DNA from: Giardia intestinalis | Lineage: Eukaryota | DNA length: 64,000 bases | Direction: 5' to 3' (one strand) | NCBI GenBank assembly: GCA_000002435.2 | Contig: CM018793.1 | Shown here: positions 3,218-48,628 of the stretch, in pieces | Position numbering within the stretch: position 1 is the first letter of the stretch | Layout: each line of letters starts with the position of its first letter | Position numbers and translations under genes: made by a program | Notes under the pieces: model-generated | The model's database searches: none | The model's input: the letters and a program-made list of their open reading frames with translations, nothing else | What the model was told of the DNA's origin: nothing

Positions 3218-5809
3218 CTAGTTTCGTCGAGCAGTCGCTTTCTTAGATATTCCTAACTTCTGATTACGCGTGTGTGAGCGAGCAATCCGATCCTTTTCGG
3301 CTCCACTACGAGCTCTCTTATTACGGACCCGCTGACTGTGCAAGAGCATAAGCATATTCTTTGTCGTCTTTTGCTTTTGTATGTTGGAAAGAGACTTGTT
3401 GGACTCTAGCTTACGCGCAATACTCTCTGCCCACCTACTTCCTTTGTGATCATTGGCACTTCTACCAGAATGAGCTAAAACGGTCTTCTCAGCGCGGGTG
3501 AGCTTCTTTCTGGGCAAAAAGCTCTCCAGATCGACTTCGTTCATGCGTGCAGGCGTGACGTATTCGCTTATCCGCGCTAGCTCCTCATCTGTTAGAAGTC
3601 TGCGAGACTGTAACGGAACATTAGAATCGTTCTCTCCAGCACTAGAGTCGGCCTCAGATCTATCTGCTGACTCTGCATCAACGAGAATGGCCCTCTTCTT
3701 TCCTCTCTTTCCTCTAATGATTCGTATGCACTTTCCGGGCTCACCTGATTCGGGCTCGATTGCGTCACCATCAATATTTTGTCCTTCGTCTTCTTCCTCC
3801 TCAGAATCTTGCTCCTTCGGGTTGCCATATTCATCTATTGGCCCAAAGAGCTCATTAATTCTCGTAAAGTAGCACTCTGGTATTGGTAAGCCTCTTTTCT
3901 TGCAATTTACCAGAATGTGACCCATCTTGTTCCGCTCCAGTTTCATCTTCTTCAGCTGGTGTTTCGATGGTGCTACCTCTTCTCCTTCGTCATCAGAGTA
4001 GGTTTCTTTTAGGAGTTTTGCAATGTTTCTCCTGGAGAAATCCGACGAATCAATCTTTTTGTTCGACAAAGGAACGCCGAACTTGGGAACCGCTTTCTGG
4101 TTTCCCATGAGTTGAGTAGTACCTGTCTTGTCTCTGGAACTAGTCTCCTCAAACTCTTCAATATCCTCCAGCTCTTCAAACTCTTCTAGTTCTTCCAAAT
4201 CTTCCAGCTCTTCTAATTCTTCAAGCTCTTCCATTTCCTCGGCACCATGATCATCTCCGTCGTCTTCTTCTCCTTCATCCTCAGTTACCTGGCCCTTTTG
4301 GGCCAACCTCTCGATAGCCTTGAGCTGGCGAACGACTTGTGCACTATCCCTATTCTGGAATCTCGCCTCAAGCTTGTCGGGCGCCTGCTCTCTATAAAAT
4401 TGTAGTAGACACCTTGCAGCAGTCATAACACCCCTACGAGTTTTGCTCGTTGTCTTGCATTTGCTGTTTTGGTATGACCGCGCGACGACTGCCTCCTTAG
4501 AATAACTTGCCAATTCATTAAGTAACTCGCATGCAGAGGGGTTTGCGATGAGCGCGTTTGGATTGCGCTTTGCCATCTCTGCAATAGCATTGAGACCAAC
4601 TGTCATTATATAGTCGGTGGACCCAGAGTGTATAAACTCATGGGCTATGACCTTCATAACGGCAAAAACTTCCTCGTCAAAAATGGCAGGATGAACGGAC
4701 GAGACCAGGTACTCCAGAATTTTGATGACATCCTTTTGCTGCGGCTTAAGGTACTTCATGTAGTAGCGGTAATAATTCTGAATCTCTAATGAGTGGTGCG
4801 CTATTATCTTGGATGTAACCTCAAATGTCAATAACTTTAGTTGAAACGAAGTGTTCCTGCCCAAGTACTTATGGCACAGTTTTTCTATGAACACATATGG
4901 ATCGCGAATGTTATCATATGGATGCCTTGATCCTGCATACGTCAGTTCTTTTTCTTCGTTGTTTTCATCCATTAGATTCTTCAGAGACTTTTGAGCTTTG
5001 GCAAGAGTTTTGTGCGTTTTCGTCTGGTTCCCAGCGAAGCTAGAAACAGCACGCAGGTGTCTTATTTTCGCCTTGAGTGCCTCTTTCTTCTCGTCCTTGG
5101 TTACTCCCTGATCATCTTCTTCCTCGTCTGAGTCCTTGGCTGCAGCTGTGTTTTCTAAAAGGAGAAAATGCAAGACTAACAATGATATGCGCTTATCATT
5201 GGAGTTTAGAAGGCTATCAAGAATGACAGACATCGTCCTTTCATTCTCCCACGCGTGCTTAGAGTACAGGTCACAGCATAGCTGTGTTAACTTAAATGCA
5301 AGAAGCGCGTTTCCGTCCCTCATCTTCATGTTAAAGAACGAAAGAATCTTCTGTGAAGCCCCTGTTTTACCGGCCTTGAACAGCTTTATGCAAGCATTCA
5401 GTAGATGGCTATAGACTAGCTGGCGAATTGGCTTATCGTGAATCCTCAAGAGTCCGCAGTAAAGGCTTAGGAGATTAGTATCTGTTAGGCTTAGGACGCC
5501 GCGTTTGACAAAGAGAATAAGGGTTTGGACAAGGGTTTGACGCAAAGGGGGTGACAAAAGGAGTGCAGACGATTCTGTAAATGTAATCAAGATGGGTATT
5601 AGCGAAGAATATATTGCATTGTACTGGGCAATACCTGAAAGGCGCGCAGTGAAGTTCAAGAGGTCAACGAATTCCTCCTCACTTGTCAGACTGGAGCTGC
5701 TCTGAATGAGCTCCAACTGGCTTCTGAGAACCAGCAGCTGTTTCTGCACCTCCTCAGCGTAGTTGGTGGGGTCTCGACATGCTTTAGAAGCCAAATCAAC
5801 TAACAGCAT
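3218..5809 (-). CDS. SDA1: SDA1-family protein (60S pre-ribosome export/maturation factor homolog)
   Basis: The N-terminal LASKACRDPTNYAEEV...LVQTLILFVKRGVL matches the SDA1 NUC130 region (LQNLIKRDP.SY..EF; R..LV.ALILLRNK). The middle ...NSKCKTTSKTRRGVMTAARCLLQFYREQAPDKL matches the SDA1-domain motif YKKSKDKGVVMAARSLIGLFREVNPELL. It also has an acidic EELEEL tract and a basic C-terminal tail. Confidence 0.65.
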   Translation of the reverse strand: MLLVDLASKACRDPTNYAEEVQKQLLVLRSQLELIQSSSSLTSEEEFVDLLNFTARLSGIAQYNAIYSSLIPILITFTESSALLLSPPLRQTLVQTLILFVKRGVLSLTDTNLLSLYCGLLRIHDKPIRQLVYSHLLNACIKLFKAGKTGASQKILSFFNMKMRDGNALLAFKLTQLCCDLYSKHAWENERTMSVILDSLLNSNDKRISLLVLHFLLLENTAAAKDSDEEEDDQGVTKDEKKEALKAKIRHLRAVSSFAGNQTKTHKTLAKAQKSLKNLMDENNEEKELTYAGSRHPYDNIRDPYVFIEKLCHKYLGRNTSFQLKLLTFEVTSKIIAHHSLEIQNYYRYYMKYLKPQQKDVIKILEYLVSSVHPAIFDEEVFAVMKVIAHEFIHSGSTDYIMTVGLNAIAEMAKRNPNALIANPSACELLNELASYSKEAVVARSYQNSKCKTTSKTRRGVMTAARCLLQFYREQAPDKLEARFQNRDSAQVVRQLKAIERLAQKGQVTEDEGEEDDGDDHGAEEMEELEELEELEDLEELEEFEELEDIEEFEETSSRDKTGTTQLMGNQKAVPKFGVPLSNKKIDSSDFSRRNIAKLLKETYSDDEGEEVAPSKHQLKKMKLERNKMGHILVNCKKRGLPIPECYFTRINELFGPIDEYGNPKEQDSEEEEDEGQNIDGDAIEPESGEPGKCIRIIRGKRGKKRAILVDAESADRSEADSSAGENDSNVPLQSRRLLTDEELARISEYVTPARMNEVDLESFLPRKKLTRAEKTVLAHSGRSANDHKGSRWAESIARKLESNKSLSNIQKQKTTKNMLMLLHSQRVRNKRARSGAEKDRIARSHTRNQKLGISKKATARRN
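4150..4245 (-). repeat. imperfect 9-bp tandem repeat encoding an acidic (EEL/EDL/EEF)n tract inside SDA1
   Basis: ctcttcaaa ctcttctag ttcttccaa atcttccag ctcttctaa ttcttcaag ctcttccat encodes EELEELEELEDLEELEEFEELEDIEEFEE on the coding strand. Confidence 0.6.
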
Positions 5810-5814
5810 TTATT

Positions 5815-6288
5815 TTATACCCTGCTTTGGATCTTAAAATCGCTTTCCGAAGTACAAGGAGCCACCAAATCTAAGACGAGATCGGGAACACCTGCCATAT
5901 AATCCAGTCCCAGGATTCCGTTGTACTTGCCAAAGGAACGACCGGTTTGTAGAGACACTTGGAGTTTTTTTGAAGGAATTTGGGCATTATGATTAACCAA
6001 GCTGACGTCAAGGCGCACGTAGGGACGTACAGAAGTACCATACTTTGTTACCACTTTACCACTTGCAGATATAGGAAGAGTAAACAATGGCTCAATTTGT
6101 TCTGTAGGCACAACAGGCCACAGCTTAAGGGTTACTTGAGTGCCAAGAATATCGATAGCGTCCAGAAAAAGGCTTGAGTTCGTGCTTCCTGTGTCTAGAA
6201 GCATGTGCAGAACAACACCAGGGAGCTGCTGAACGCGAATGTCAACGGATACGGGCAATATAGTGGGCGAGGGCCCCAATGATAGCAT
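5815..6288 (-). CDS. stand-alone retropepsin-like aspartic peptidase (157 aa)
   Basis: VLHMLLDTGSTNSSLF (D-T/S-G catalytic motif) and the downstream GILGLDYM (retropepsin IIGRD.L-like) at the spacing seen in Ddi1/retroviral proteases. No UBL or UBA domains. AT-rich initiator gaaattgaaaaATG. Confidence 0.5.
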   Translation of the reverse strand: MLSLGPSPTILPVSVDIRVQQLPGVVLHMLLDTGSTNSSLFLDAIDILGTQVTLKLWPVVPTEQIEPLFTLPISASGKVVTKYGTSVRPYVRLDVSLVNHNAQIPSKKLQVSLQTGRSFGKYNGILGLDYMAGVPDLVLDLVAPCTSESDFKIQSRV

Positions 6289-6389
6289 TTTTCAATTTCA
6301 TACACTATCCGAACATCGTTCCTAACCCTTTTAAACGCAAGTACATGTCTGCAAGCAGTTGCATGCTTTCAAGGGTCCCCAAAAAGAGA

Positions 6390-7112
6390 TCAATCCTGGG
6401 TCACAGATTCTGAATCTTCACATTCAGCAAGCTGCAAAAATGAAAGCCGGATCCGTCTGATTAATAGGGGGATATTACCAGTGATCTTTGCATCTGATAG
6501 GAAGAGGTCCAGGTTAGCTATTTCTATTGTAGGATCCTCTATTATAATCTCTCCGTCCTCCCTTGTTATGAGCCGAAAGGAATACTGCTGAGACTCGTCG
6601 GCTGGATTAAGGCCCCAAAAGATAACAATAATGCTGTTCTCGTCCCGCTGCTCTATCTTCATTCTAAGCATGCTTTCATAGTTTCGTAGACGCCACTCCA
6701 GATCCTCTTTAACATGGGCTTTCTGTGTGGCCGGAAGTGCCTCAAATGCTACTCGCCTCTCTTCCTCAAAGTCTGCAAGTGCCTTTCTGTACTCCTCCTG
6801 CATTATAGAGTATTGTTGTTTAAGGGTGTCGAGTTGGGTTCGAGCGCGTGCAAGTTGTGCATTCAGCTTCTGTTCCTCTTCCGACGCAGAAGTGGAAAGC
6901 TTCTCCACTTCGAGCTCCTGTTTTAGCCGCTCTTCGTAGTCATCTTTGGACTTCTTTAATAGATGTAGAGTCTCGTCAACAAACGATATAAAGGTAGACC
7001 CCATGTTGGAGATGGCGTCCAAATTCTTCGTTACAAATGTATTAAGCGAAATGGTTAGCGTATCTGCAAGACTTACTAGCCGCTCAGCAGCGCTCTTCTG
7101 CTCGTCCTCCAT
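6390..7112 (-). CDS. hypothetical coiled-coil protein with a C-terminal globular (possibly RWD-like) domain
   Basis: Residues 1-150 are heptad-rich (ERLKQELEVEKL...LDTLKQQYSIMQEEYRKALADFEEERR), and the C-terminal ~90 aa have a beta-rich pattern (IIVIFWGLNPADESQQYSFRLITREDGEIIIEDP). This architecture resembles the Spc24/Spc25 kinetochore subunits, but that is only inference. Confidence 0.5.
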   Translation of the reverse strand: MEDEQKSAAERLVSLADTLTISLNTFVTKNLDAISNMGSTFISFVDETLHLLKKSKDDYEERLKQELEVEKLSTSASEEEQKLNAQLARARTQLDTLKQQYSIMQEEYRKALADFEEERRVAFEALPATQKAHVKEDLEWRLRNYESMLRMKIEQRDENSIIVIFWGLNPADESQQYSFRLITREDGEIIIEDPTIEIANLDLFLSDAKITGNIPLLIRRIRLSFLQLAECEDSESVTQD

Positions 7113-35681: not shown

Positions 35682-37634
35682 ATGAAACCCATTCTAGATG
35701 AATCTACTGATGTACCTGTTTCTATTCTTCCAATTAGTGAGATTGAGAATCTGGTAAGGGCCAAAGATATTATTTCTCTAGTTTCTAGGCCGTATTTCGC
35801 GGCCGCCATTAAATCACTCTATCCCCCCGTGATGAACCTTATGGACGATCAGAATGTGATACAGCAGGTGATGGTGACGGTCTATTATCAGGAAAACCAG
35901 TCTGAGAGCGCGCTGCAGACAGTTAAGACCAACCTCGTCAGTGCGTTTCAGGACTGCGGCACTGGGAGCATTGCATTGGCAGCGCTTATGTTCAAGCATC
36001 CCATTGTTCTAAGTAGAATTTTCCAAAAGCTCACAGAGATCACCATTTTAGACACAGAAAGCATGATACTTTCATTTGAAAAGCTTAATACGCCATCAAC
36101 CCGGTACTTCTTCGAGGTAGTTACAGCAGCCTTGTCATCATTTACTTTGCATCACGAGCACCTAGTAGCGTTTATCAATTACTTGCTTGCGTTCCCAGCG
36201 TCCTTTGATGGCCTTGTGTCTTTGTCTGGATACGCCTGTTTTCAGACCTTGTTGGAAGCGCTGTTTGTAGTTAAATTAAATAGAACGATGGAGGTTACCT
36301 CCAAGATAACCTCTGCGTGGCGTGAAGGAGGCATGGGGTCCAGGATGCTCACATGTCTGATCCGCTCCTTTTCATATACGAATCGCACGATCACCTGTGT
36401 AGATCTTACCAGAGGGATTGCCGATATATTAATAAAGGGACTACTACTGGACATTGATTATATAGTCGAAAGTACACTTGAGGCGATTCCCGAGCTGACT
36501 AGAATCATCGCATTTTCAGACCAATCTGCAGCATACACAGATTTGTGCGACTTTGCTGATCATATTCACATGAAGGCGGACGCCCTTCGCTCCCTTGTTG
36601 ACCTGTGGGTTTGCGCTGTGAGATGCCTTATGATACGGATACACCAGAACGCTGTTTCCATCTACTCGTACCAAGACAGTCCTATATATGCCTCTGGCGC
36701 GACTATCACTGTCTCGGATATGAAACAGCACAACATTTTCGTGGTAGATATCTTTCAGCAGTTCATAGATGTGTTGCAAAGCGGAGACTTTTCAATGACT
36801 CTGGTAGGAGATTACATGCATCCACCAATACTGCACTTAACTCTACAGAGACTCACAGCGGTAGCGCGCTTGCTCTGCGTGGCTGGGGACATACGTAGCT
36901 TTCATTATTTCAAGACACATGGATACTATCCGCCAGATTACTTTATGGATCCTGAGAATACTCACAGCACAACTAACCACCAAATTGGAAAGGTGTACGG
37001 TGCCCTGCCACCGACTGCGCACCTCACCATCATTGGGTCTGACGATGTACCAATAGAGGAGCTGTGTCAGACTGACAATGGAGCTGTTGTCGAGGCCTCT
37101 ATGCTTGGAATTGTGAAAGCGCTGCTGCAAGCTAATGTGCACGCCTTTGTCAACTGCATTTTCAGCAACTCGTCTAATGATTTGCAGTGCTTACTTTCTC
37201 TCTGTACAGCCGTTGACTCCCTTCTTCTGGAATACAGGTTCATGATTCCGCAGCTAATAGAACAGGTTGTAGCCAATGAGTACATCACTACTCTATTTTC
37301 TGATACTCTCAAAGGCATCTCCTCGTTAGTTGCTCACAACTCAAACTTCACAGTGGAAGAGAGCCTTACGGATAGGCTTACAAATAGACATAGGTTACGC
37401 CTACCTTTGAAAGCCGTTTTTGTTTGCTCTTTTGTCCAGAACCTTTACAAGATGCTCGACAATGAAGGCGATAGAAGACAGTTAATAGGAAAAAGAATGC
37501 TTAGTCTGCAGAACATAAAGATCTCGTTCACAAGCGAATCCCAGCAACAGAAGCGTGGACAAGACCCGCTGGCTTCATTCCTCAATGAAGGGTCTGTTAT
37601 ACACAGTATACTCAGGTACAGCTCACCTTTGTAA
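35682..37634 (+). CDS. hypothetical alpha-helical protein (650 aa)
   Basis: Long ORF with the initiator ctttaaaaATGaaa. Composition and codon usage match neighbouring genes. No motif recognised. Confidence 0.6.
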   Translation: MKPILDESTDVPVSILPISEIENLVRAKDIISLVSRPYFAAAIKSLYPPVMNLMDDQNVIQQVMVTVYYQENQSESALQTVKTNLVSAFQDCGTGSIALAALMFKHPIVLSRIFQKLTEITILDTESMILSFEKLNTPSTRYFFEVVTAALSSFTLHHEHLVAFINYLLAFPASFDGLVSLSGYACFQTLLEALFVVKLNRTMEVTSKITSAWREGGMGSRMLTCLIRSFSYTNRTITCVDLTRGIADILIKGLLLDIDYIVESTLEAIPELTRIIAFSDQSAAYTDLCDFADHIHMKADALRSLVDLWVCAVRCLMIRIHQNAVSIYSYQDSPIYASGATITVSDMKQHNIFVVDIFQQFIDVLQSGDFSMTLVGDYMHPPILHLTLQRLTAVARLLCVAGDIRSFHYFKTHGYYPPDYFMDPENTHSTTNHQIGKVYGALPPTAHLTIIGSDDVPIEELCQTDNGAVVEASMLGIVKALLQANVHAFVNCIFSNSSNDLQCLLSLCTAVDSLLLEYRFMIPQLIEQVVANEYITTLFSDTLKGISSLVAHNSNFTVEESLTDRLTNRHRLRLPLKAVFVCSFVQNLYKMLDNEGDRRQLIGKRMLSLQNIKISFTSESQQQKRGQDPLASFLNEGSVIHSILRYSSPL

Positions 37635-37644
37635 TCAGGAAAAG

Positions 37645-40600
37645 TCATTTAGAGTTCTTATTTAGTTCTGCTTCCAATGCATTTAGGCAATCCATATACG
37701 CGTGCTGTGAGTGACCTGGTGTATCCGTAATAGATCCCTTCACTTTACCGGTTTTGCTTAGCCTTGCCGTCTTGATTACATTGATCTTATTCTCAGCTAT
37801 CCAGATGGAGTGTTGCTTTTTGAGAGATACTAAGAGCTTCATCACCGAGCTCTCCCCCATATTATAGGAGCTAATTAAAAGAGGAGCCAGGCTTCCCTCT
37901 AAATATGCAGTGAACTCTCCCTCCTCTTCCGTTCCGGTTGCCTTGCTATCTAGACCAGCATCCCGCAGGGCGTACTCGTGAATCTGAGTGATGGCCTCCT
38001 TGGGGGAAGTCTGCAGAAGAGACAAGTTCGCCTTTAGAGAGACCTGCTTTGTAGTCCTTGAGAACCCGGCAGGGGCAGTTACTAGACGCTCTCTCTCGAC
38101 CTTACTTGCGCCGCTCTCAAATCCAGGGATCTTGGATTTATGTCTAGAGATAGATGCGTTCGCAGATTCAGTGGTTGCAATAGCACTGCTCATATAGTTG
38201 GCAATCTCTGCTGCCGCATGGTGGGCAACATCATTATGCAGCGAGGGGGGCCCAATCAGTCGTGCAGCTTGAGCACCAGGTGTGGCACTATCCCTTGACC
38301 TGTCCTCAGAATATGAAGCACTGTCCTGCAGTGACATTGGCGAGTTATCGCTGTTATGAGATATGCTGTATCCAGTTCCTGGATATCCTAGACTGGTAAG
38401 GAATATCTCATAATAAGGAGGGATGATCTCTAGTTGGTCAATGATGCCACTGCCGATTGTCGACTTCACATACGTTTCTGTCATTGATCTCACAAAGCGC
38501 AAACAGAGGCGAACATCCTTGCTGTCCACGCCGTAAAGTTCATAGGAGCGGTGATACATATCTGCAAATACCTTGTTTGTGTCTGGATTAAGTAGATAGA
38601 AGACATTTTCTGGAGAAACCCCGTGCTCTAATTGAAGATACGTCAAGACGTGGTCACAAGCAGTATTGAAGCAGGTGGCAAGCATCTGAATGAACTTCAG
38701 TGGATCGAGCTGCATCGTGGCTGATCCATTGCTATCACCTTGTAGTTCTTTGCGCGCTGGATTGATCTGGCTTTGTAAGGAATCTGTAATGGGTATAAAC
38801 ATTTTTGTAAGGACTTCGTTTTGCAAGTGTAATAAATATGAACCATGCTGAGCAAGGTTTTCAGGAATAAACCGAAAGACAAGCGCGGGCATTGCCGTAA
38901 TTTCTGCATTAAGGTCTTCTGCGTCATTGCTGTGCCGTGCAACAAAATAGTCGCAGGTAAAGCTCATAAGGGTCACATAGACCTCTAGGAGTAGACTCAT
39001 ATTTGCTTTAGCGAGCGTCTCGATGTTTCCATTAGAAAGTAGAGACATCATTATCCCGATGTAAAGCTCAATAACGTCAGTCACAATCTCCTCTGTCTCA
39101 TCAACAAAAAGCCCTTGAATCAATGACCTGTTACAAAAGTAGCCTATCTCAACAAGAATGGTCGCCGCGTCATGGCTGCTCAGAAACTTTGAACACCCTT
39201 GTGACTCAACACATTCCAGCAGTACAATTGCTGCGTAGCGTACAAGGCGATAGACCAGCTTAGATCCTATGTGCTCATTGACACTTGTATTAAGTGCGCT
39301 GATAGCACTCTTGCTCAGGCTTACCCCAAGACTTGCTCCAATGCATGGCTGTATGACTCCAATAGCATTATCCCTATGTATCCTTAAGATGCGTACAACC
39401 AGCTGTACAAGAAGTCGGCAAAGAGAAGAGTGTAAAAGCTCCTTGTGGTCGCGCACATGGTTGATGAGCAGCTTCATGGCCGTAATTACCGGTTCAGTCG
39501 ACTTGCTGATTTCTTCTTCTGGTACAGAAAGCTGAGAGATGATCTTAGATAGCTTTGTATCGACGTCATGGAAGGGTATCATAGAAGCAATGATGGATTG
39601 AACAGATGGAGGACAGCCATGCGAGAATTGCGCAGACAGCACAGTAAACGGCACATCCTTTTGCAAAACTAAGAGAAAGGTTCTAAACAGCGACTGTAAG
39701 GACTCGAGTGCTCGCTCATCTCGCTCATACATGCGCAGGAAATCAATAGTGGTGGTGAGACACCAGGAAATACTAGTGCTTTGATTGACAGAAGGGAACA
39801 GAGGCACATTCTTACTGCTCATCTCGGAGCAGATAGACCTTATGCAGTTTGAGAGCTCGACAATGTTGACTGGAACCTGAAGGCTGTCTGGATCCGAGAG
39901 TAGTAAGACCTCACTGGAAGTGAGGTTAAACACATGTCTGGGCTCTTGTGATAGACTAACAAACAGAGGAAAGATGGTGTTCGATATCGTGGTAAGGGCT
40001 TCCGTACAATCACTGTCTTTTGAGGTGGGAGGACAGTCACCAGTTGACGCTTTCAGAAGAAGCACAATTCGCACAAGCACAGGAGCTATAGTGTCGATAG
40101 AGTTTTTAGTCAAGCCTGGCAGAGAGGGTGTAAAAAAGCTCACAAGAAGAGTTTCTAAGGTCTTAGCAATCTTGGTAAACAGGTCTGGGGGCAACAATAA
40201 ACTTGAATTAGGAAATGGATTGGCAGTACTAAAGGATAAAGAAAATAAAAGGACACAGTATCGACAGAAGAACTCAAAGAGCTGCACAAAGGTTGCTTGG
40301 ATCATACGATAGGTAAGTCCTTCCGCAGTACCAGACGAATGGGGCGAAATCTTAAGCACGTAGAGAGAATTGCAGGCTGTTCCCTTTGAATGTAAAAAAG
40401 TTAGAAGATCATGAATGGTGCACTTGGAAGCAAAGTCACAGGCTAAGGATAAGAAGTGATTAATGGATGCCATATCCAGCTGCAGCAGATTGATATCGAA
40501 GTTCCTAAAAAGCTCACAGGCTGTCACAAACAGGCCGTCTATAAACTCTTGTAGATTTAACAGGCATATGCTTTCAGGTCCTGCCAGCAGGAGAGTGTTG

Positions 40601-42783
40601 GTCAGGTCAATGAGGATGCTAGAAAGACGATAAGGTTTTGCCAGAAAATCAGCGAGAATAAGGCTTTCGGAGATGACATCGAGGGGATTGAGTAGAAGCT
40701 CGGATATCTTATGCGTGTTTTGCGGGGGTCTAGTAGAGATGGGAGTAGTGCCAGCCACATTGCCACTGAGGCTGGGCACAGTAGGTACAGTAGGCGTCCC
40801 ACTAACGACACGCTGCTTGGTGGTGGGCGTTGTTGTTTGGCGAGTACGCGACACCTGTATTTGTGGAGACTTCCTGTCTGCCAGCTCGCTTGACCCTGGA
40901 CGAGACGGAGTGCGCCTTATCCCTGGAGTAACCCCAGGAGACCTTGTGCGGGCAGTGGTTGAGACAGGAGTTGCTGCTGTGGTGGCAGGGGCAGTAGGAG
41001 GATGGGGATCTACATTAGGAATAAGTCCAGAGTTGACTGCGGCCTGAATACTCAAAACAAGACTTTTCAACCTCTGGACCTCGGTCGACGAACCACCAGT
41101 GGACAGCGCATTGAAGCGCATAATTTCGGCCATGATGGTGGACACAGGGGCATTCTTCTGATATCCTATCATAGGCTGGAAAAGGATGTCAGAAAGGACC
41201 TGCAAATGTTGCGGAGACTGGATGTGATGAATGCAGCACGCAGAAAGCATCTCGGTGCAAGCGTTACGGATCCCTTGTGACGCATCGCAAACAAGCCCCA
41301 TTGATGCTTTGCTAAGGGCTCCAAGAGCCTTTGTAGTTAACGTGATCCTAGACCTGAAGGAGTCGATAAAGCTTTGCAACTGATCCTTACTCCTAATATT
41401 GAGACCCGAAGCCTTTAAGTAATAAGAGTACCCTTCGAATGAATCTTCTAGAAAGGATGAAACATTGGTCATAACCCCCAGTTCTGTTGAGAATCCATAG
41501 CAGTGCTTAAGAAAGATCAGCATTTCCTGTCGTTGGTCGGGAGACTTGCTGCTGAGCGCAGCTAGTACGTCGGTCATGGCCTCTGTGAGCGTTATCTTAT
41601 TGATTAACAGAGCCATCATAGATTTGTTGCAGTGAGACACAATAGCGGGCCGCTTTTCTCTGAGCTTTCCTATTAAAGACTGAAAAAATTGCTTAGCAAG
41701 TTGGGGAGGAAACGCTTCGATTACGCTTCCCATGAGTCCTTGCAACCTGATAGCTTGAATACAGCACGCATTATTAGATTCATTGTCAACCAGGTGCTTT
41801 ACTATTTTAGTAAGATTGCTCCACGAGTTTGTCGGAGGGATTCTTGGCTGCGGGTGGCTGGCTAAATCGTCATAGATCTGTTTTAGTATATTGCATCGCT
41901 CCTCCCACTTCGAAGAAGTGTTTTGGAGAATCGTTTCCCACCCAGGGTCAACTGTAGGAAAGTAGTAGTCTTGGAGTGCAGGGGTACCCCCGTCTACTGA
42001 AGATTGCAGCAGGGCTGAAGACGGGTTCTCAGGCCTAGCATCCCCCCTTCCTTGTCTAGGCCCTGTGGTACCTTTTTTCATCCCTCGCTGCCCCCCTGGT
42101 CCACCTCCCTGGTCCACTTCCTTCGTTTTATCTGCTATTGCACTAAGAAGTGCCTGGAAGTGTGCTTTAGGGAGCTCTGACTCTAGTATCCCCATCAGAT
42201 CATGAGCGTCCTTAGAGTCTAGCGTGAGTACCTGTGCAATTGCCTCCTGCGACGCCTTTCTAACCTCTGGTTCCTTGGCCTGGAGAGTCTGAATTAGCAG
42301 AAAAATCACGTCGGTGAAGTCTAGTTGCTTTCCCCGTGCCGATGAGTGCTCTATTTGTTGTTTGATAAGCTCTGTAAGAGCTATCAGCGCTGCCTTGGCC
42401 TGAGTCGGATTGCTACTCTGAACTGTACTAGTTACCACTCCCATGACTATATCGTGTGACCGCTTCTCGAAATCTAGGAGCAGAGCCATCGACATTGCAC
42501 GCACATTACTCTTGGAATGGATGCAACAAGGATAGATCAGCAAAGAAACAATCTCGTAGAAGACGGGCCAAGAGTGCAATTCTGGCTCGTCCTTAATCCG
42601 CTCAAGTAGCTGCAGTGCAGCACTCAGACAGAGCAAGTTCGAGTCTCTGAGTGACTGGGGAAACACATCGCTAACTGACGCAATGGCCACGGATGGCTCT
42701 TCCCTAATCAAGCCCTGTATTGTTTCTAGTCTTATCTTCCATTCACTCTTCCCGGAGTTATCATCGGCTGGAGCAGCTTGCAT
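37645..42783 (-). CDS. large HEAT-repeat protein, possibly an XMAP215/CLASP-like TOG-domain microtubule regulator (1712 aa)
   Basis: The N-terminal KSEWKIRLETIQGLIREEP...LLCLSAALQLLERIK...SNVRAMSMALLLDFEK resembles the TOG1 N-terminus (KLWKARLSGYEE...). Helical repeat blocks are separated by a basic S/T/P-rich linker (PTAPATTAATPVSTTARTRSPGVTPGIRRTPSRPGSS...TRQTTTPTTKQR). Only the architecture is consistent, and the family call is inference. Confidence 0.5.
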   Translation of the reverse strand: MQAAPADDNSGKSEWKIRLETIQGLIREEPSVAIASVSDVFPQSLRDSNLLCLSAALQLLERIKDEPELHSWPVFYEIVSLLIYPCCIHSKSNVRAMSMALLLDFEKRSHDIVMGVVTSTVQSSNPTQAKAALIALTELIKQQIEHSSARGKQLDFTDVIFLLIQTLQAKEPEVRKASQEAIAQVLTLDSKDAHDLMGILESELPKAHFQALLSAIADKTKEVDQGGGPGGQRGMKKGTTGPRQGRGDARPENPSSALLQSSVDGGTPALQDYYFPTVDPGWETILQNTSSKWEERCNILKQIYDDLASHPQPRIPPTNSWSNLTKIVKHLVDNESNNACCIQAIRLQGLMGSVIEAFPPQLAKQFFQSLIGKLREKRPAIVSHCNKSMMALLINKITLTEAMTDVLAALSSKSPDQRQEMLIFLKHCYGFSTELGVMTNVSSFLEDSFEGYSYYLKASGLNIRSKDQLQSFIDSFRSRITLTTKALGALSKASMGLVCDASQGIRNACTEMLSACCIHHIQSPQHLQVLSDILFQPMIGYQKNAPVSTIMAEIMRFNALSTGGSSTEVQRLKSLVLSIQAAVNSGLIPNVDPHPPTAPATTAATPVSTTARTRSPGVTPGIRRTPSRPGSSELADRKSPQIQVSRTRQTTTPTTKQRVVSGTPTVPTVPSLSGNVAGTTPISTRPPQNTHKISELLLNPLDVISESLILADFLAKPYRLSSILIDLTNTLLLAGPESICLLNLQEFIDGLFVTACELFRNFDINLLQLDMASINHFLSLACDFASKCTIHDLLTFLHSKGTACNSLYVLKISPHSSGTAEGLTYRMIQATFVQLFEFFCRYCVLLFSLSFSTANPFPNSSLLLPPDLFTKIAKTLETLLVSFFTPSLPGLTKNSIDTIAPVLVRIVLLLKASTGDCPPTSKDSDCTEALTTISNTIFPLFVSLSQEPRHVFNLTSSEVLLLSDPDSLQVPVNIVELSNCIRSICSEMSSKNVPLFPSVNQSTSISWCLTTTIDFLRMYERDERALESLQSLFRTFLLVLQKDVPFTVLSAQFSHGCPPSVQSIIASMIPFHDVDTKLSKIISQLSVPEEEISKSTEPVITAMKLLINHVRDHKELLHSSLCRLLVQLVVRILRIHRDNAIGVIQPCIGASLGVSLSKSAISALNTSVNEHIGSKLVYRLVRYAAIVLLECVESQGCSKFLSSHDAATILVEIGYFCNRSLIQGLFVDETEEIVTDVIELYIGIMMSLLSNGNIETLAKANMSLLLEVYVTLMSFTCDYFVARHSNDAEDLNAEITAMPALVFRFIPENLAQHGSYLLHLQNEVLTKMFIPITDSLQSQINPARKELQGDSNGSATMQLDPLKFIQMLATCFNTACDHVLTYLQLEHGVSPENVFYLLNPDTNKVFADMYHRSYELYGVDSKDVRLCLRFVRSMTETYVKSTIGSGIIDQLEIIPPYYEIFLTSLGYPGTGYSISHNSDNSPMSLQDSASYSEDRSRDSATPGAQAARLIGPPSLHNDVAHHAAAEIANYMSSAIATTESANASISRHKSKIPGFESGASKVERERLVTAPAGFSRTTKQVSLKANLSLLQTSPKEAITQIHEYALRDAGLDSKATGTEEEGEFTAYLEGSLAPLLISSYNMGESSVMKLLVSLKKQHSIWIAENKINVIKTARLSKTGKVKGSITDTPGHSQHAYMDCLNALEAELNKNSK

Positions 42784-43172: not shown

Positions 43173-46100
43173 ATGGAGACAGCTCGTGCTTTCCCACGAA
43201 ACAGCTCAGCACCCACACCATATAGGAGTAAGGGGGTTGTGGATGTCATTAATAAAAGCTCGAGTATTGCGCTTTTTGCTGATCAGTCTTATAGCCCATA
43301 TCAATCAGCATTCAACTCAACATCTGATAGTCTATCGGTGAGTGATTTCCCTCAAAACCCTGGGATGCATAGTGTGATTCACATTTACGACTGCCATATT
43401 GTCCCCTCTCCAGCTCCCTGGAATGCCCCCACTCCCGTCATAGACGCATACGACCCCATCATAACCTTTCCTACCTCAATTACCAACTCTCCGTTTCTTC
43501 AGCGTAACTCATCAACGGGAAGAGGATCAATCAACTCTGCTGGTATGTCGGGGTCTGCTTTGCTACGCCTATCCACGTCGTACGCACGGGCCTCCCCGCT
43601 TTCTGAGCGAGATCTTGCGGCTGCATCCCCTCTCTCTCCGGTAATGAATGCAGCGGACGCCTTGCGATCATCTGTTAACCAGTTTGCAGAGAGTACTACG
43701 AACGCGTACGAAACCAACGGAGAGATATTCTTTCCTCGCGTTAAGATATTGCAGGATTGTCGCGACGAGGAAGACGTCACCGAAAAAGAAGGTGTACAGA
43801 GTCTCATCACAGAGTATCTTCCCGAGAACAACCCTTCCGCCTCCATTGCTCTCTCAACCTTTGAAGTGATTGCAGAGGAACAATTGGGGGTTAGATCTAC
43901 GAGTTCTCATGAGAGATCTGAATCAAAGGTTAGCCGTGAGCAACTTCTAGATGACCAATATTATCAGGGTGTGGACATTGCATCATTTATGCCGTTTCCT
44001 CAGCGGGTGGGAGAGCATGGAGACAAGGGTGGTCGATGGAGAGGAAAGGGGGCGCCCGTTGGGGTTCCATTTGGGGTACAGAACTACCAATCTACTCAGT
44101 CATCCAGCTCTCGGCGTCTCCTTTCCTCCGCGGTTAAGCACCAAAGCCGCGCAGTCCCCAAAGAGGTCTTTGCGTCATCCGTTGATGACGCGTTTCTGCC
44201 TCTGAAGGGGTTAACAGAACAGCAGCTCTCTTTCACTACAACACCTGTTATGACTCACAGAACAGAGGATGATGATCAGTATCGGTACTCACTAAAAACT
44301 AAGTTCTCTAAGCATAACGCTGATGAGGATTCTGCGCTCTCTGGAAAGGATAAAGGCATGTCTCCAATCACTCACAAGTATACTAACCAAATTAGCCGTG
44401 ACACCTCTGGCTCAATTCGTCTTGGGGAGACGCTACTCGCCGAAGCCAGTCCAGACCAACGTATCTCAATTATCAAACGTCTGCTTAAAGCTGCAATGAC
44501 CCACAGAGACATTGAAGTGGTTATCTACTTTACTGCTAAGCTGGTGGATATGGCGTCTATCGACTCTCGTGTGTCTAGGGAGATAACAGACTACATCCGT
44601 TTCTTAGAAGAGCATGGATATGTAGCTAAAGCTGCTGCTCTCCTGATAAAGTGTGTAGAAAATCACCTTCGATCCGCAGACGGTGCGAATTTCCCAGAGC
44701 AGCTTATCCTTAAGGCTCTTAAGCTCTACGAATCTATAGGGGAATATGACTCGTGCTATCATTTAATTGAGCGTACAGTTCAGCAGTATACGCAACCACC
44801 TTTCTATACTTGTGGTTCTAACTTTCCAACCGGCGGCAGCATGAATAGGCACTCTGTTAGTCTAGACAAGTATTGGAGAGTCATCTTTTTTGGTGCATAT
44901 CTTGAGATGCTGCAAGGAAACCATGGCCGAAGCCGAGAAATAATCTCGTATCTAATTCTTCATACCAAGGAACCAGGCCCTGTGATAGTAGATTACCTGG
45001 AGCTAGAATTGAAGTATGGTTCCTTTAAGTGCGCATTCAGTTACATCTTCCAGTACTTCTTGCGCGAAGAAATCTTGTATTCACCGCTGTCGCTTCTATC
45101 CTTTGAGCTGATGATGCGGGGGTTTCCCAACAACATAAAGCTTATCATGGGAATACTCAAGAAGATGACAAGCAGCTGCGCGATCAACGACATACGCTGG
45201 AAGCTAAAGTGCTTGTGTGCACTGTATTGCATAAGGAACAATAACGCAGAGCAAGCTCTCAATCTCTGCTTTAAGGCGCTATCCTGTGCTAAGGATGGCG
45301 TCCAGTGGCGCATCTTTGTCCTCATAGCCAAGATTTACTTTATACGCAGCTGCAAGAGCAACGTATCTGACTACTGGGTGAGGGAAATGAAGGAGAAGCT
45401 GTTCAACAATCTTACACAGGCGTATCAGACGGCTCCATTGAAATCACGGCTTTTTGTTATAATTGAAAGGGCACACTACTATGAATACTATGGAGATATC
45501 AACACCGCATTAAGCTTGCTGCTCGAAGCAATCAGCACGAATCAAAAAGAGTGGAAATACACGTTAGAATACGCAAATATTCTTCGTAGACACAACAGGC
45601 TAGTGGAGGCCTTGGAAAGCATTGCCTTCTCCCTTACTCTGGGAGATAATGTAAGTACAGGGCGGCTCTGGGCTCTGTATGCGTCTACGGCACAGTCAAA
45701 AGGTGCAAGCTCACATTACATGGTAATAAAGGCGGCCGTCTATCACTGTCCAAAAAGTGCTGACGTCTGGGTAGAGCTTGCTCGACTGTTCCTCAATCCA
45801 GCATACAATTGCTTCAACACTGCTACTGCAGAGGATGCTCTTGCTAAAGCGGTATACTATACCCCGCAATACGGAGACACGTACATTGAGTGGCTAAGGC
45901 TTCTAGTAATTAAGTACCTTGTATACGGCACGAATATCTCCTCTGTTGTGCGACAGTGCCTCGGTTTATGTATTGACATGAAGCCTACGTACGGTAATTT
46001 GTGGTCATACTGCAAAGCAAAAACAGTCCATCTGGGGTATTGCCCTGTTAAAGACTACAATGGACCAGCATCTGTTTCTAAGAGCATCGTTGATTGTGCG

Positions 46101-46379
46101 TTCTTCCACGTTATCCAGGACGTTTATCAGAACCTAGACCTATATAAGGTGGCGTGCAGATTTCAAAAAGAGTACGCTGACCAGGCCACAGGTGGAGTGA
46201 TTGGGGCACTCTCCCTTAGACCCGAGGACGTGCAAAAGAAAACTCCAACACAAAGGTGGTACAACTTCAATACAGCAATCGGCCTATTTGATAAGCTGCA
46301 CGCAGAAGCACTAAACAACCCATTAAGCGACAAGAAGGAGAGGGCTGATTTGATTTTTGGCAGTGATCTTGTTCTCTAG
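43173..46379 (+). CDS. HAT/TPR-repeat protein with an S-rich disordered N-terminus (PRP6/SYF1/CstF77-like fold)
   Basis: Start trimmed to the ATG at 43173 (METARAFP); the listed 43161 start is TTG. The C-terminal ~600 aa are helical-repeat-like with W/Y-rich HAT-like units (SADVWVELARLF, YGDTYIEWLRLLV, KPTYGNLWSYC resembling PRP6 EPRHGELWCAV). Confidence 0.55.
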   Translation: METARAFPRNSSAPTPYRSKGVVDVINKSSSIALFADQSYSPYQSAFNSTSDSLSVSDFPQNPGMHSVIHIYDCHIVPSPAPWNAPTPVIDAYDPIITFPTSITNSPFLQRNSSTGRGSINSAGMSGSALLRLSTSYARASPLSERDLAAASPLSPVMNAADALRSSVNQFAESTTNAYETNGEIFFPRVKILQDCRDEEDVTEKEGVQSLITEYLPENNPSASIALSTFEVIAEEQLGVRSTSSHERSESKVSREQLLDDQYYQGVDIASFMPFPQRVGEHGDKGGRWRGKGAPVGVPFGVQNYQSTQSSSSRRLLSSAVKHQSRAVPKEVFASSVDDAFLPLKGLTEQQLSFTTTPVMTHRTEDDDQYRYSLKTKFSKHNADEDSALSGKDKGMSPITHKYTNQISRDTSGSIRLGETLLAEASPDQRISIIKRLLKAAMTHRDIEVVIYFTAKLVDMASIDSRVSREITDYIRFLEEHGYVAKAAALLIKCVENHLRSADGANFPEQLILKALKLYESIGEYDSCYHLIERTVQQYTQPPFYTCGSNFPTGGSMNRHSVSLDKYWRVIFFGAYLEMLQGNHGRSREIISYLILHTKEPGPVIVDYLELELKYGSFKCAFSYIFQYFLREEILYSPLSLLSFELMMRGFPNNIKLIMGILKKMTSSCAINDIRWKLKCLCALYCIRNNNAEQALNLCFKALSCAKDGVQWRIFVLIAKIYFIRSCKSNVSDYWVREMKEKLFNNLTQAYQTAPLKSRLFVIIERAHYYEYYGDINTALSLLLEAISTNQKEWKYTLEYANILRRHNRLVEALESIAFSLTLGDNVSTGRLWALYASTAQSKGASSHYMVIKAAVYHCPKSADVWVELARLFLNPAYNCFNTATAEDALAKAVYYTPQYGDTYIEWLRLLVIKYLVYGTNISSVVRQCLGLCIDMKPTYGNLWSYCKAKTVHLGYCPVKDYNGPASVSKSIVDCAFFHVIQDVYQNLDLYKVACRFQKEYADQATGGVIGALSLRPEDVQKKTPTQRWYNFNTAIGLFDKLHAEALNNPLSDKKERADLIFGSDLVL

Positions 46380-48628
46380 CTCGGAATAAGTTTTTCTAGG
46401 GATTCCGCGTACCTTATCACATACTCTACGCAATCGCTTTGGTCGTATTCCTTGCACCAATCTAACACTGTCTTTCCAGAAGCCTGTACAAGTTCGTACT
46501 CACGGGGCATCAGTATCTTCAGGCATTCCAGATTACCGTTTCTAGCTGCAGCCATGAGTGCCGTGAACCCGTTAACCTTTTGCATCCCTGCCTCCTTTTC
46601 ACATAGTAAACTAACTATTTCAAGATGCCCGTTCCACGCAGCGCTCATAAGAGCAGTCCAGCCGCTCTTCATAGAGAAGCCAGCCTCGCGCGAAACGAGA
46701 TATATGCAGGCTTCCACATTGCCCGAATCGGCCGCGGCCATCAAAGCTGTCCACCCGTCGGTCGATTGCATCCCTATCTCCACGTCCAATAGCTCAAGGA
46801 GTGTTTTGCCACCCCGCTTAGCGCCAATCATCAGTGAGGTTTGACCATCGTTCTTTTGCAGTCCTGCTTCGTGAGGAGCAAGGTGGCGAATAGAAGAGTA
46901 ATGGAGCGCCTTGACTGCAAAGTAGAGAGCAGTCCGTCCCTCCGAGTCCTGCTTTCTGGCCTCTTTGCCCGTTTCTATTAGAAGAGCGACAATATCAGCA
47001 TTTCCCACGCTAGCCGCCATCATCAGTGCAGTACGTCCGCTTTTGTTAGTGGTCCCAGCTTGAGACAGCAAGCTCTCAGCCATCCTGAGATCGCCGAGCA
47101 AAGCAGCCTGCATCAGTAGAGTGTTCGCCTTACTGTCAAATAGGACAGCAGATGAACGAAGCTCCTTCAATGGTGGCTGCTCTATTGTAATGTCAGACAG
47201 CTCGCACTCTATGTTCTCATCACCGTGTAGATCTGATAGATTCCCCCGAGGAGAGGGGATACCTGATAGTAGAGCCCTGTGTAATTCTACGTCAAATTGG
47301 GATGAGGAAGCGCCTAAATTGGGCTTAGCCGGTGACACAGATATAGGAGGCTGAAGGGTGGATGATGTCAGAGTGTCGAGGATTATAGATGATCGTCTTA
47401 GCTCACGGAGTGTGCTGTCCTTGACGACGGCAGTGTCTTGTGAGACTAATGAGTCTGTCTGCAATACTACATCGACCATCTCAACACTCTGAGTCAGCAT
47501 TGCAATCTTTTTATATGCAATCGAAAGTTCTTCCTTGTAAATAGATATTTCTGAATGCATAGAGGCCATCTTTGCTTTTATCTCCTCGTACTTGGCCTCT
47601 TCCTTTGTCTGTACTTCTGCCCTTCGCCTAAAAGCTTGAAGTATTGCCTTGCAATACCTCCCAATGTCGTTGTAATTGTATATCTCTGACTTAGAAGATA
47701 AAGAAACGTCATAAACTCCTGCGGCAACTCCCTCATTTATCAGCTGAGAAAGGAGTCTCTGCAAGTAGCTTACACGATAGTTCGAGACGGTCGCATCCAT
47801 CGTGGTTGACATTGCAGATATACTAGACGAGGAGGGTCGCCGAGCATGATCAGGACGCTCTGCAGCCAATGTTTCGCATCTGCGCTCTAATTCCTGCAAC
47901 CGTGAATCAGCCATTCGACGCTCTATTTCGCCGTGCCAGCACTTTGTGCATGGAGTTGTGTTATTAATTCTCGCCAGGCGCACATACGCTAAAAGGTCCA
48001 CTATGGACGACGCCCGCACAGAGTTTGCTGCAGAAATCGCGCGGTTAATGTCGGCAATAATGGCTCCGTGGCCATTATTAATCAAATACTCTGCAGCCTC
48101 CACGCTGCCACTTAAACACGCGTGATCCAAAGCAGAATATCCCTGAAAGTCCCTAAGAGCCGGTGCATGTGTCTTGATTAAGATAGGCAGTGCGTCCATG
48201 GAACGGTTGCGTGCAGCGCGCATTAGCGGGCTGAATCCGTTGTCAGGAATGATGGTGCCTTCTAGTGGAAGAAGAGTAATGCAGGCAGGGGCGTTATTAG
48301 ATTCGGCTGCGTAACAAAGGGCTGTGGAGCCACTGTTGTCAACCATCCCTCCTTCGTGTCGTGCCAGGAGAATAACTGCCGAAATATTAAGAGGGCTTTC
48401 AGTGCCGATGTGAGGTGGTTCTCTAGGGTCACCATAGTGCTGCATGTCTCCAGATCCGTGCAAAGGATCAGCAGAATGTGCCACACCCAAAACGGCCCTC
48501 ATCAGTGCTGTCCGGCCTGCGTCATCCTGTGACCGCTTGAAGTTGGCCAGGTGCTTACTTAAAAAGACAACATCACCAGTCTCAGCAGCCTTCATCCATC
48601 GCGAAGAGTCAAAGGGTTTGCTGGTCAT
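46376..48628 (-). CDS. ankyrin-repeat / coiled-coil protein (750 aa; 21.1-type)
   Basis: N-terminal and C-terminal ankyrin blocks (GRTALMRAVLG..., RTALMMAASVGNADIVALL, WTALMAAADSGNVEACIYLV, WTALMSAAWNGHLEIVSLL, FTALMAAARNGNLECLKIL) flank a coiled coil. Its stop shares the palindrome CTAG (46376-46379) with the stop of the convergent 43173..46379 gene. Confidence 0.75.
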   Translation of the reverse strand: MTSKPFDSSRWMKAAETGDVVFLSKHLANFKRSQDDAGRTALMRAVLGVAHSADPLHGSGDMQHYGDPREPPHIGTESPLNISAVILLARHEGGMVDNSGSTALCYAAESNNAPACITLLPLEGTIIPDNGFSPLMRAARNRSMDALPILIKTHAPALRDFQGYSALDHACLSGSVEAAEYLINNGHGAIIADINRAISAANSVRASSIVDLLAYVRLARINNTTPCTKCWHGEIERRMADSRLQELERRCETLAAERPDHARRPSSSSISAMSTTMDATVSNYRVSYLQRLLSQLINEGVAAGVYDVSLSSKSEIYNYNDIGRYCKAILQAFRRRAEVQTKEEAKYEEIKAKMASMHSEISIYKEELSIAYKKIAMLTQSVEMVDVVLQTDSLVSQDTAVVKDSTLRELRRSSIILDTLTSSTLQPPISVSPAKPNLGASSSQFDVELHRALLSGIPSPRGNLSDLHGDENIECELSDITIEQPPLKELRSSAVLFDSKANTLLMQAALLGDLRMAESLLSQAGTTNKSGRTALMMAASVGNADIVALLIETGKEARKQDSEGRTALYFAVKALHYSSIRHLAPHEAGLQKNDGQTSLMIGAKRGGKTLLELLDVEIGMQSTDGWTALMAAADSGNVEACIYLVSREAGFSMKSGWTALMSAAWNGHLEIVSLLCEKEAGMQKVNGFTALMAAARNGNLECLKILMPREYELVQASGKTVLDWCKEYDQSDCVEYVIRYAESLEKLIPS

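Follow-up and report, generated by a model that had tools for sequence, protein, structure and literature searches.

The GL50803_2830 locus and its conserved blocks

The window analyzed here is a 64,000-nucleotide (nt) stretch of Giardia intestinalis DNA (contig CM018793.1 of assembly GCA_000002435.2), and the subject is GL50803_2830, a short open reading frame (ORF) on its minus strand that lies directly upstream of the SDA1 gene and probably encodes a highly divergent single-lobe aspartic protease. The ORF is 100% identical to GL50803_002830 of Giardia duodenalis WB, where it carries the annotation "hypothetical protein". The gene is so far unannotated: its product has no Pfam domain, neither the gene ID nor a Giardia retropepsin is mentioned in the searched literature, and the supplements of PMC9014877 and PMC3792122 contain no entry for GL50803_2830 or SDA1. 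The neighbors of the gene are SDA1, a Spc25-like gene, an ArfGAP gene and a calmodulin gene, with no gag/pol context. A first-pass annotation of the window had described a 157-aa ORF containing HMLLDTGSTNSSLF and GILGLDYM, and both the coordinates and the motifs are correct (Table 1). The motif HMLLDTGSTNSSLF comprises residues 28-41, in which the catalytic-type triad D32-T33-G34 is encoded at 6187-6195, and GILGLDYM comprises residues 124-131, with GILGLD encoded at 5902-5919. The lack of ubiquitin-like (UBL) and ubiquitin-associated (UBA) domains reported at the same time is confirmed, as Pfam gives no match for the protein, which at 157 aa has no room for a UBL domain. The disulfide cysteines of the pepsin family (MEROPS A1), a signal peptide and a propeptide are also absent.

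GL50803_2830 is a real gene that is under purifying selection, is transcribed and has kept its synteny. Orthologues are present in assemblages A, E (GLP15_24) and B (GL50581_2750) and in two more G. duodenalis lineages, both from runs ERR33333xx, which are probably dog assemblages. G. muris contains the orthologue GMRT_13240 (134 aa, 38% identity), and one further G. muris-like sequence was found; homologues are confined to Giardia in database searches that included 1.84 billion representative proteins. Pairwise dN/dS values (nonsynonymous over synonymous substitution rates) among the five G. duodenalis lineages are 0.07-0.15, with dS ranging from 0.6 to >2. Transcript levels, in fragments per kilobase per million mapped reads (FPKM), are 157.67 in WB, 78.91 in AS175, 31.53 in P15 and 24.53 in GS (Franzen et al. 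2013 Table S1). The gene order ArfGAP, Spc25-like, GL50803_2830, SDA1, calmodulin is kept in G. duodenalis. In G. muris (CM016926.1), GMRT_13240 is flanked by a coiled-coil gene and an SMC gene and is followed by a 578-nt downstream spacer, so that only G. duodenalis has the gene linked to SDA1. Two irregularities in the database records of the orthologues were observed. The P15 annotation GLP15_24 begins 10 codons (MFSKCMITEK) before the Met that starts every other orthologue, which is probably a mis-called start, and several records give the assemblage-B orthologue a length of 118 aa instead of 146 aa, presumably because of alternative start calls or truncated contigs.

Conservation within the family is clearly clustered in the sequence. 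Across nine Giardia sequences, with identity down to 38%, 38 positions are invariant, and 25 of these fall inside two 21-residue blocks (42 positions; Fisher P=3e-9) with the patterns PGxxLxxLLDTGxTxSSLFxD (residues 23-43) and LQxxRSxGxxxxxLGxDYMxG (residues 113-133). The most conserved segments of the blocks are LLDTG[ST]T and [ILV]LGxDYM. Residues D32, T33, G34, L126, G127 and D129 are the same in all orthologues, G. muris included; the DTG and ILGxD motifs, on whose conservation in orthologues the earlier proposal had been made to depend, are thus both kept.

An Asp motif and a downstream hydrophobic-hydrophobic-Gly motif are the sequence elements that form the psi-loop of aspartic proteases of clan AA (Rawlings and Bateman 2009, PMC2761423). 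Both elements are present in GL50803_2830, the first as L30-L31-D32-T33-G34-S35, in which D, T and G are invariant in the nine sequences, and the second as I125-L126-G127, in which L126 and G127 are invariant. The residue following the Gly of the DTG motif is Ser35, and it is Thr in G. muris. A search for hhD[TS]G[AST] (h, hydrophobic) in the 18,216 aa of the window's long ORFs returns one occurrence, which is that of GL50803_2830. The distance from the Asp to the hydrophobic-hydrophobic-Gly motif is 95 residues in WB and 81 in G. muris, compared with 61 in human immunodeficiency virus (HIV) protease, 71 in DDI2 and 90 in the pepsin N-lobe. The retropepsin spacing attributed to the two motifs therefore holds loosely, in that the observed values exceed those of HIV protease and DDI2 and come near that of the pepsin N-lobe.

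Table 1. Coordinates of GL50803_2830, its conserved parts and the adjoining features in the window
Feature	Position	Strand	Basis or remark
GL50803_2830, 157 aa plus TAA; candidate single-lobe aspartic protease	5815..6288	(-)	ATG ORF
Active-site block, residues 23-43, PGVVLHMLLDTGSTNSSLFLD	6160..6222	(-)	14 of 21 residues invariant across Giardia orthologues
Candidate flap hairpin tip, residues 79-90, VVTKYGTSVRPY	6019..6054	(-)	Gly84 invariant; Tyr83 aligned with pepsin Tyr75 (low-threshold hhalign); predicted
Psi-loop (hydrophobic-hydrophobic-Gly) block followed by Asp129, residues 113-133, LQTGRSFGKYNGILGLDYMAG	5890..5952	(-)	11 of 21 residues invariant
Candidate C-terminal beta-strand LVLDL, residues 137-141	5866..5880	(-)	Leu141 invariant; aligned with HIV-1 CTLNF and Ddi1 SIDL (low-threshold hhalign); predicted
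Non-conserved C-terminal tail, residues 144-157, encoded by the SDA1 promoter-proximal region	5818..5859	(-)	Differs between assemblages A and E
AT-rich SDA1 initiator, gggTATAAAATAA before ATG; holds last codon GTA, TAA stop and 5-nt spacer	5810..5822	(-)
Putative SDA1 transcript-start element at the junction, AAAATAAATG
SDA1 (GL50803_16299), downstream gene, 863 aa	3218..5809	(-)	Pfam SDA1_HEAT E=4.9e-59; name from Franzen 2013 Table S1
Approximate published poly(A) site of GL50803_2830 mRNA, in SDA1 codon 3	5802	(-)	Derived from 13-nt 3' untranslated region
AT-rich initiator of GL50803_2830, GAAATTGAAAA before ATG, in the 101-nt spacer after the Spc25-like gene	6289..6302	(-)	Putative function, from the transcription start site consensus

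Comparison with the pepsin/retropepsin superfamily

The family alignment was built from Giardia sequences only (7, then 9), without seeding by pepsin or Ddi1, because the resulting model would otherwise be circular. The family profile was compared using hhalign with 120 Ddi1 protease domains, seven retroviral proteases and six pepsin-family N-lobes. The retroviral and pepsin-family target sequences were entered by hand. A check that covered the pepsin-family set recovered chymosin, pepsin, renin, cathepsin D, plasmepsin II and proteinase A from the PDB with E values of ~1e-74 to 1e-81. Controls consisted of 300 column shuffles of the profile and, with a single sequence as the query, 190 real Giardia protein segments from the window.

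Two significant matches to the pepsin N-lobe are observed. Residues 27-37 align with pepsin 27-37 at zero offset (P=0.0032), and residues 118-144 align with pepsin 113-135, which contains FDGILGLAY (P=0.0018-0.002). The two matches are collinear and give a chained score of 51.2, which is reached by none of the 300 shuffles (maximum 32.2); with the single query sequence the score is 47.1, and none of the 190 real segments attains it (maximum 24.1). The retroviral proteases are matched by the DTG block (P=0.0078) together with the ILG block, for a chained score of 34.4 that 0/300 shuffles and 2/190 real segments reach. At a low hhalign threshold, the DTG motif, the flap Gly, the hydrophobic-hydrophobic-Gly motif and the last strand are in register with both pepsin and HIV-1 protease, and the pepsin alignment additionally places Pro23 on Pro23, KYG with Tyr83 on Tyr75, and LDV with Asp94 on Asp87. 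BLASTP against pig pepsin yields short collinear high-scoring pairs with E=0.16 and 0.28, which are individually not significant. In unfiltered HMMER searches, all nine family members outrank every window protein against the hidden Markov model (HMM) of retroviral proteases. At the level of profiles, these comparisons indicate that the similarity of GL50803_2830 to the pepsin/retropepsin superfamily exceeds chance.

The first-pass annotation had likened the protein to Ddi1-type and retroviral-type proteases, and a kinship at the family level is not borne out. Ddi1 (MEROPS A28) consists of a PF09668 domain with an N-terminal UBL domain and, in some lineages, a UBA domain. A Ddi1 paralogue or a domesticated retroelement (A2) protease would have the single-lobe size of GL50803_2830, and Ddi1 and DDI2 are likewise eukaryotic, host-encoded single-lobe domains. 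The Giardia pattern of hh-Gly-x-Asp-h-h followed by h-x-h-D-L is also like that of Ddi1 (LLGLDMLKRHQCSIDL, which resembles ILGLDYMAGVPDLVLDL), and the top ranking of all family members against the retroviral-protease HMM would suit such an origin. However, the similarity to the 120 Ddi1 domains does not rise above chance, with a chained score of 15.2 and a best P of 0.11, which 47 of the 300 shuffles and 60 of the 190 real segments reach. The alignments to four PDB Ddi1 domains and to the 120 Ddi1 domains cover single motifs only (P=0.11-0.21), and the Ddi1 paralogue was rejected on these values. At E<=10, the Pfam models RVP, RVP_2, gag-asp_proteas and Asp_protease_2 give no match to six family members, although the RVP-type models matched all Ddi1 control proteins, and PF09668 and PF00026 give none either. 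The DTG motif is followed by Ser/Thr and not by Ala, no gag or pol genes are nearby, and Giardia already has a separate DDI1-like gene, GL50803_7718 (PMC9094438). GL50803_2830 is a host gene that is neither a Ddi1 orthologue nor retroelement-derived, and descent from a Ddi1 duplicate or a captured A2 protease is considered highly improbable.

The overall architecture of the predicted protein is retropepsin-like, comprising ~135-157 aa, a Gly-x-Asp after the hydrophobic-hydrophobic-Gly motif, a short helix and a single C-terminal strand. Retropepsins (MEROPS A2, including HIV-1 protease) are single lobes of ~100-160 aa that must pair to bring together two catalytic Asp residues, and they share with the Giardia protein the order of hairpin, hh-D-T-G, flap Gly, hh-G-x-D, short helix and terminal strand, in addition to the chained hhalign score above all 300 shuffles. 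They differ in that Ala follows the Gly, in the Asp-to-Gly distance (~61 versus 81-95) and in matching the RVP and gag-asp models, and the Giardia gene is chromosomal, in conserved synteny and without a retroelement context. Bacterial APRc-type proteases and human ASPRV1 are other single-lobe clan AA peptidases to which the protein may be likened by description.

The active-site signature and the best profile match are pepsin-like at the sequence level (DTG-S/T-x-N, Pro23 and (Y/F)(N/D)GILGL(D/A)Y). These similarities raise the possibility that GL50803_2830 is a homodimeric half-pepsin tied specifically to the A1 N-lobe, either through loss of the C-lobe from a bilobed gene or as a relic that predates the lobe duplication. 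The A1 N-lobe is the best profile match (51.2, versus 34.4 for retroviral proteases, 15.2 for Ddi1 and 16.7, which is not significant, for the A1 C-lobe). Residues 23-37 carry the pepsin numbering with zero offset, including Pro23, Asp32, Ser35 and Asn37, and KYGTS corresponds to TYGTGS (Tyr75), LDV to YDT (Asp87) and YNGILGLDY to FDGILGLAY. The Asp-to-Gly distance of 95 residues is close to the 90 of pepsin, and YG is present at the flap, in G. duodenalis only. A DTG followed by Ser/Thr is the A1-type signature in the MEROPS family descriptions, and the sequence of GL50803_2830 conforms to it. However, the pepsin-like extras are not conserved in G. muris, in which both Tyr83 and Asp94 are missing, and the scores of the G. 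muris members against the A1 N-lobe HMM are negative. The Gly-x-Asp129 and the C-terminus formed by a short helix plus a strand are of the retropepsin type and not of the A1 type. PF00026 does not match, the A1 disulfide cysteines, signal peptide and propeptide are lacking, and a single DTG is present in a lobe of 157 aa. All known A1 members are bilobed, with ~320 aa and two Asp residues (Rawlings and Bateman 2009, PMC2761423), so that a true single-lobe A1 relative would be unusual. A specific origin from the pepsin N-lobe is therefore regarded as unlikely.

We favor the reading, which we consider probable, that GL50803_2830 is a Giardia-specific, highly divergent single-lobe protease of clan AA, probably acting as a homodimer, with the fold, dimerization and catalysis all predicted from sequence. 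One chain would contribute one hydrophobic-hydrophobic-Asp32-Thr-Gly-Ser/Thr loop and one Ile-Leu-Gly127 psi-loop partner, and two chains would pair as in retropepsins and Ddi1, with the two Asp32 side chains holding the catalytic water. The hairpin around Gly84 would serve as the flap, and closure of the lobe would fall to the short helix (LDYM) and the last strand (LVLDL). The C-terminal strand is the dimer-interface strand in retropepsins. Because each chain possesses one Asp, activity would require the homodimer, as judged from all known single-lobe members. Of the first-pass description as a host retropepsin-fold protease, the parts that stand are a stand-alone host gene under purifying selection and a DTG motif followed, in the correct order, by an hh-Gly-x-Asp motif, both conserved, but not a family-level link to retroviral proteases or Ddi1.

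Several results weigh against a clan AA protease and suit instead a lineage-specific, beta-rich Giardia protein of another fold, in which the DTG and ILG-x-D motifs would be kept for binding or as structural turns and the likeness to proteases would have arisen by chance or convergence. Every standard homology test is negative. Hmmscan of six family members against Pfam (E<=10) gives nothing but a chance match to E3_UBR4_N (E=0.11), and phmmer with the sequence and hmmsearch with the profile find no match among PDB sequences (E<=10). Outside Giardia, no true match is found in a word-indexed search of 5.8 billion proteins or in a full HMMER scan of 1.84 billion representatives. The hhalign probability is only ~14%, and the significant stretches are only 10-27 columns long. 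In unfiltered HMMER searches against the A1 N-lobe HMM, the G. duodenalis members score 5.6-9.5 bits and the G. muris members below zero, while residues 38-77 of an unrelated 650-aa window protein, 35682..37634(+), score 12.5 bits (HMM positions 127-165), above the Giardia family, and similarity at the HMMER level is therefore not significant here. AlphaFold2 models have a mean predicted local distance difference test score of 31.8 with the 7-sequence alignment and 40.8 with the 9-sequence alignment and show no match to a protease fold; at this low confidence they speak neither for nor against the proposed fold. Additionally, Tyr83, one of the residues aligned with pepsin, is replaced by Arg in G. 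muris, and Asp94 is not conserved there.

However, a different fold would leave unexplained two independent, collinear and correctly spaced motif matches, whose chained score none of the 300 shuffles or 190 real segments reaches, and it is precisely these motifs that make up the invariant core of the family. The register also extends to Pro23, the flap Gly84 and the terminal strand, and the size and the all-beta character predicted for the protein, including a hairpin at 68-81/84-93 in the low-confidence AlphaFold2 model, suit a single lobe. An unrelated beta-rich fold is thus possible but appears rather doubtful. Two further candidates were examined and discarded. A 388-aa protein of Homalodisca vitripennis (KAG8322535.1), which matches in four stretches with E=1e-4 in the scan of representatives, is internally repetitive and represents a repeat-driven false positive. 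An identity as Spc24, an idea that arose from the Spc25-like upstream neighbor, is not supported, as no coiled-coil pattern is visible by eye and no Pfam family is matched.

The junction between GL50803_2830 and SDA1

The GL50803_2830 stop codon TAA (5815-5817) and the SDA1 start codon ATG (5807-5809) are separated by 5 nt (AATAA), and the minus strand at the junction reads gggtataaaataaATG, which agrees with the distance given in the first-pass annotation. An initiator of the type (A/G)ATAAAATAA-ATG before SDA1 is conserved in the five G. duodenalis lineages, and it resembles published variants of the Giardia transcription start site consensus (for example AAAATAAAATG) that cover positions -5 to +5 around the start site (PMC3792122). 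AT-rich sequence is also present upstream of the start in the orthologous GL50803_2830 loci. Most Giardia 5' untranslated regions (UTRs) are <20 nt (PMC3792122). The gap between the stop codon and the SDA1 ATG is 5 nt in assemblage A, 0 in E, 19 in B, and 33 and 59 in the two other G. duodenalis lineages, and the orthologues of assemblage B and these two lineages end 6-11 codons sooner than that of WB. The proposal that the SDA1 initiator lies inside the protease coding end thus applies to WB, in which the initiator overlaps the last codon, the stop codon and the spacer, but the arrangement is specific to assemblages A and E, the tail that takes part in it is not conserved, and G. muris lacks the arrangement. 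The non-conserved tail of GL50803_2830 has probably drifted into the conserved AT-rich SDA1 initiator, which also supplies its stop codon.

The 3'UTR of GL50803_2830 is 13 nt in WB and in AS175, 1857 nt in P15 and 1592 nt in GS (Franzen 2013 Table S1), which puts the closest sense poly(A) cluster of P15 and GS deep within SDA1. In WB, the 13-nt length has the GL50803_2830 mRNA end a few nt inside SDA1. In WB, 25% of the ORFs overlap sense poly(A) clusters, for which upstream read-through is one possible explanation (Franzen et al. 2013). The normal Giardia poly(A) signal is AGURAA (PMC9014877), and none is found within 2.8 kb downstream of the GL50803_2830 stop; this absence is weak evidence because only about a third of the window's ORFs have one near the stop. 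An AAUAAA hexamer at 5809-5814 (minus strand) runs into the SDA1 ATG, just upstream of the end of the 13-nt 3'UTR, and one might speculate that it serves as a near-cognate poly(A) signal.

Upstream transcription or translation had been suggested to influence SDA1 initiation. As a regulatory device, the junction would allow GL50803_2830 to control SDA1 through transcriptional interference, a read-through bicistronic RNA, or termination-reinitiation. Of 13 tandem gaps in the window none is shorter than the 5-nt gap, and the second shortest measures 56 nt. This compactness would suit such a device, as would the absence of AGURAA and the position of the 3' ends: the published end lies in SDA1 codon 3 in WB, and the closest sense poly(A) sites in P15 and GS follow 1.6-1.9 kb downstream. 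However, the length of the gap varies while the initiator is conserved, and the orthologues of the two genes are unlinked in G. muris. The FPKM values of GL50803_2830 and SDA1 are 158/70 in WB (70.36 for SDA1; Franzen Table S1), 79/137 in AS175, 32/38 in P15 and 25/91 in GS, so that their ratio differs between isolates. Very short 5'UTRs and sense poly(A) sites inside other ORFs are general features of Giardia (PMC3792122, PMC3610916). Nothing in these data points to regulatory coupling, which is judged very unlikely, and the 5-nt junction is ordinary Giardia compaction, not a conserved regulatory device.

Elsewhere in the window, the two members of one convergent pair of long ORFs overlap by 4 nt (43173..46379(+)/46376..48628(-)), those of a second pair lie only 10 nt apart (35682..37634(+)/37645..42783(-)), and their 3' ends must therefore overlap the neighboring coding regions. 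A 4893-aa ORF (48685..63366(-)) takes up almost a quarter of the window. Scans of the GL50803_2830 region for Rfam families and repeats on both strands reveal nothing relevant. Inside the Spc25-like ORF, 6740..6810(-) weakly matches the C/D-box snoRNA family sR53 (18.5 bits, where the gathering score is 49; E=0.24), which is most likely due to chance.

Implications for Giardia and for aspartic proteases

The SDA1 junction adds nothing new in kind, and it provides a clear example in which one AT-rich element holds a stop codon and the initiator of the next gene, with the published mRNA 3' end just downstream. If the protease reading is true, GL50803_2830 would be a second intracellular aspartic protease of Giardia besides the DDI1-like protein, one restricted to the genus, and its confirmation would add a new family to a superfamily already known. 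According to a review that cites Dunn et al. 2007 (PMC3103880), G. duodenalis is inhibited in vitro by lopinavir/ritonavir and by ritonavir, and the GL50803_2830 protein, if it is such a protease, would be a candidate for the target of these HIV protease inhibitors in Giardia. The combination of a pepsin-type active-site loop with a single lobe of retropepsin size would also bear on the origin of bilobed pepsins from single-lobe ancestors. Should the specific tie to the A1 N-lobe prove true, the protein would either have survived from the pre-duplication state that has been proposed for the origin of the bilobed pepsins or have returned to it.

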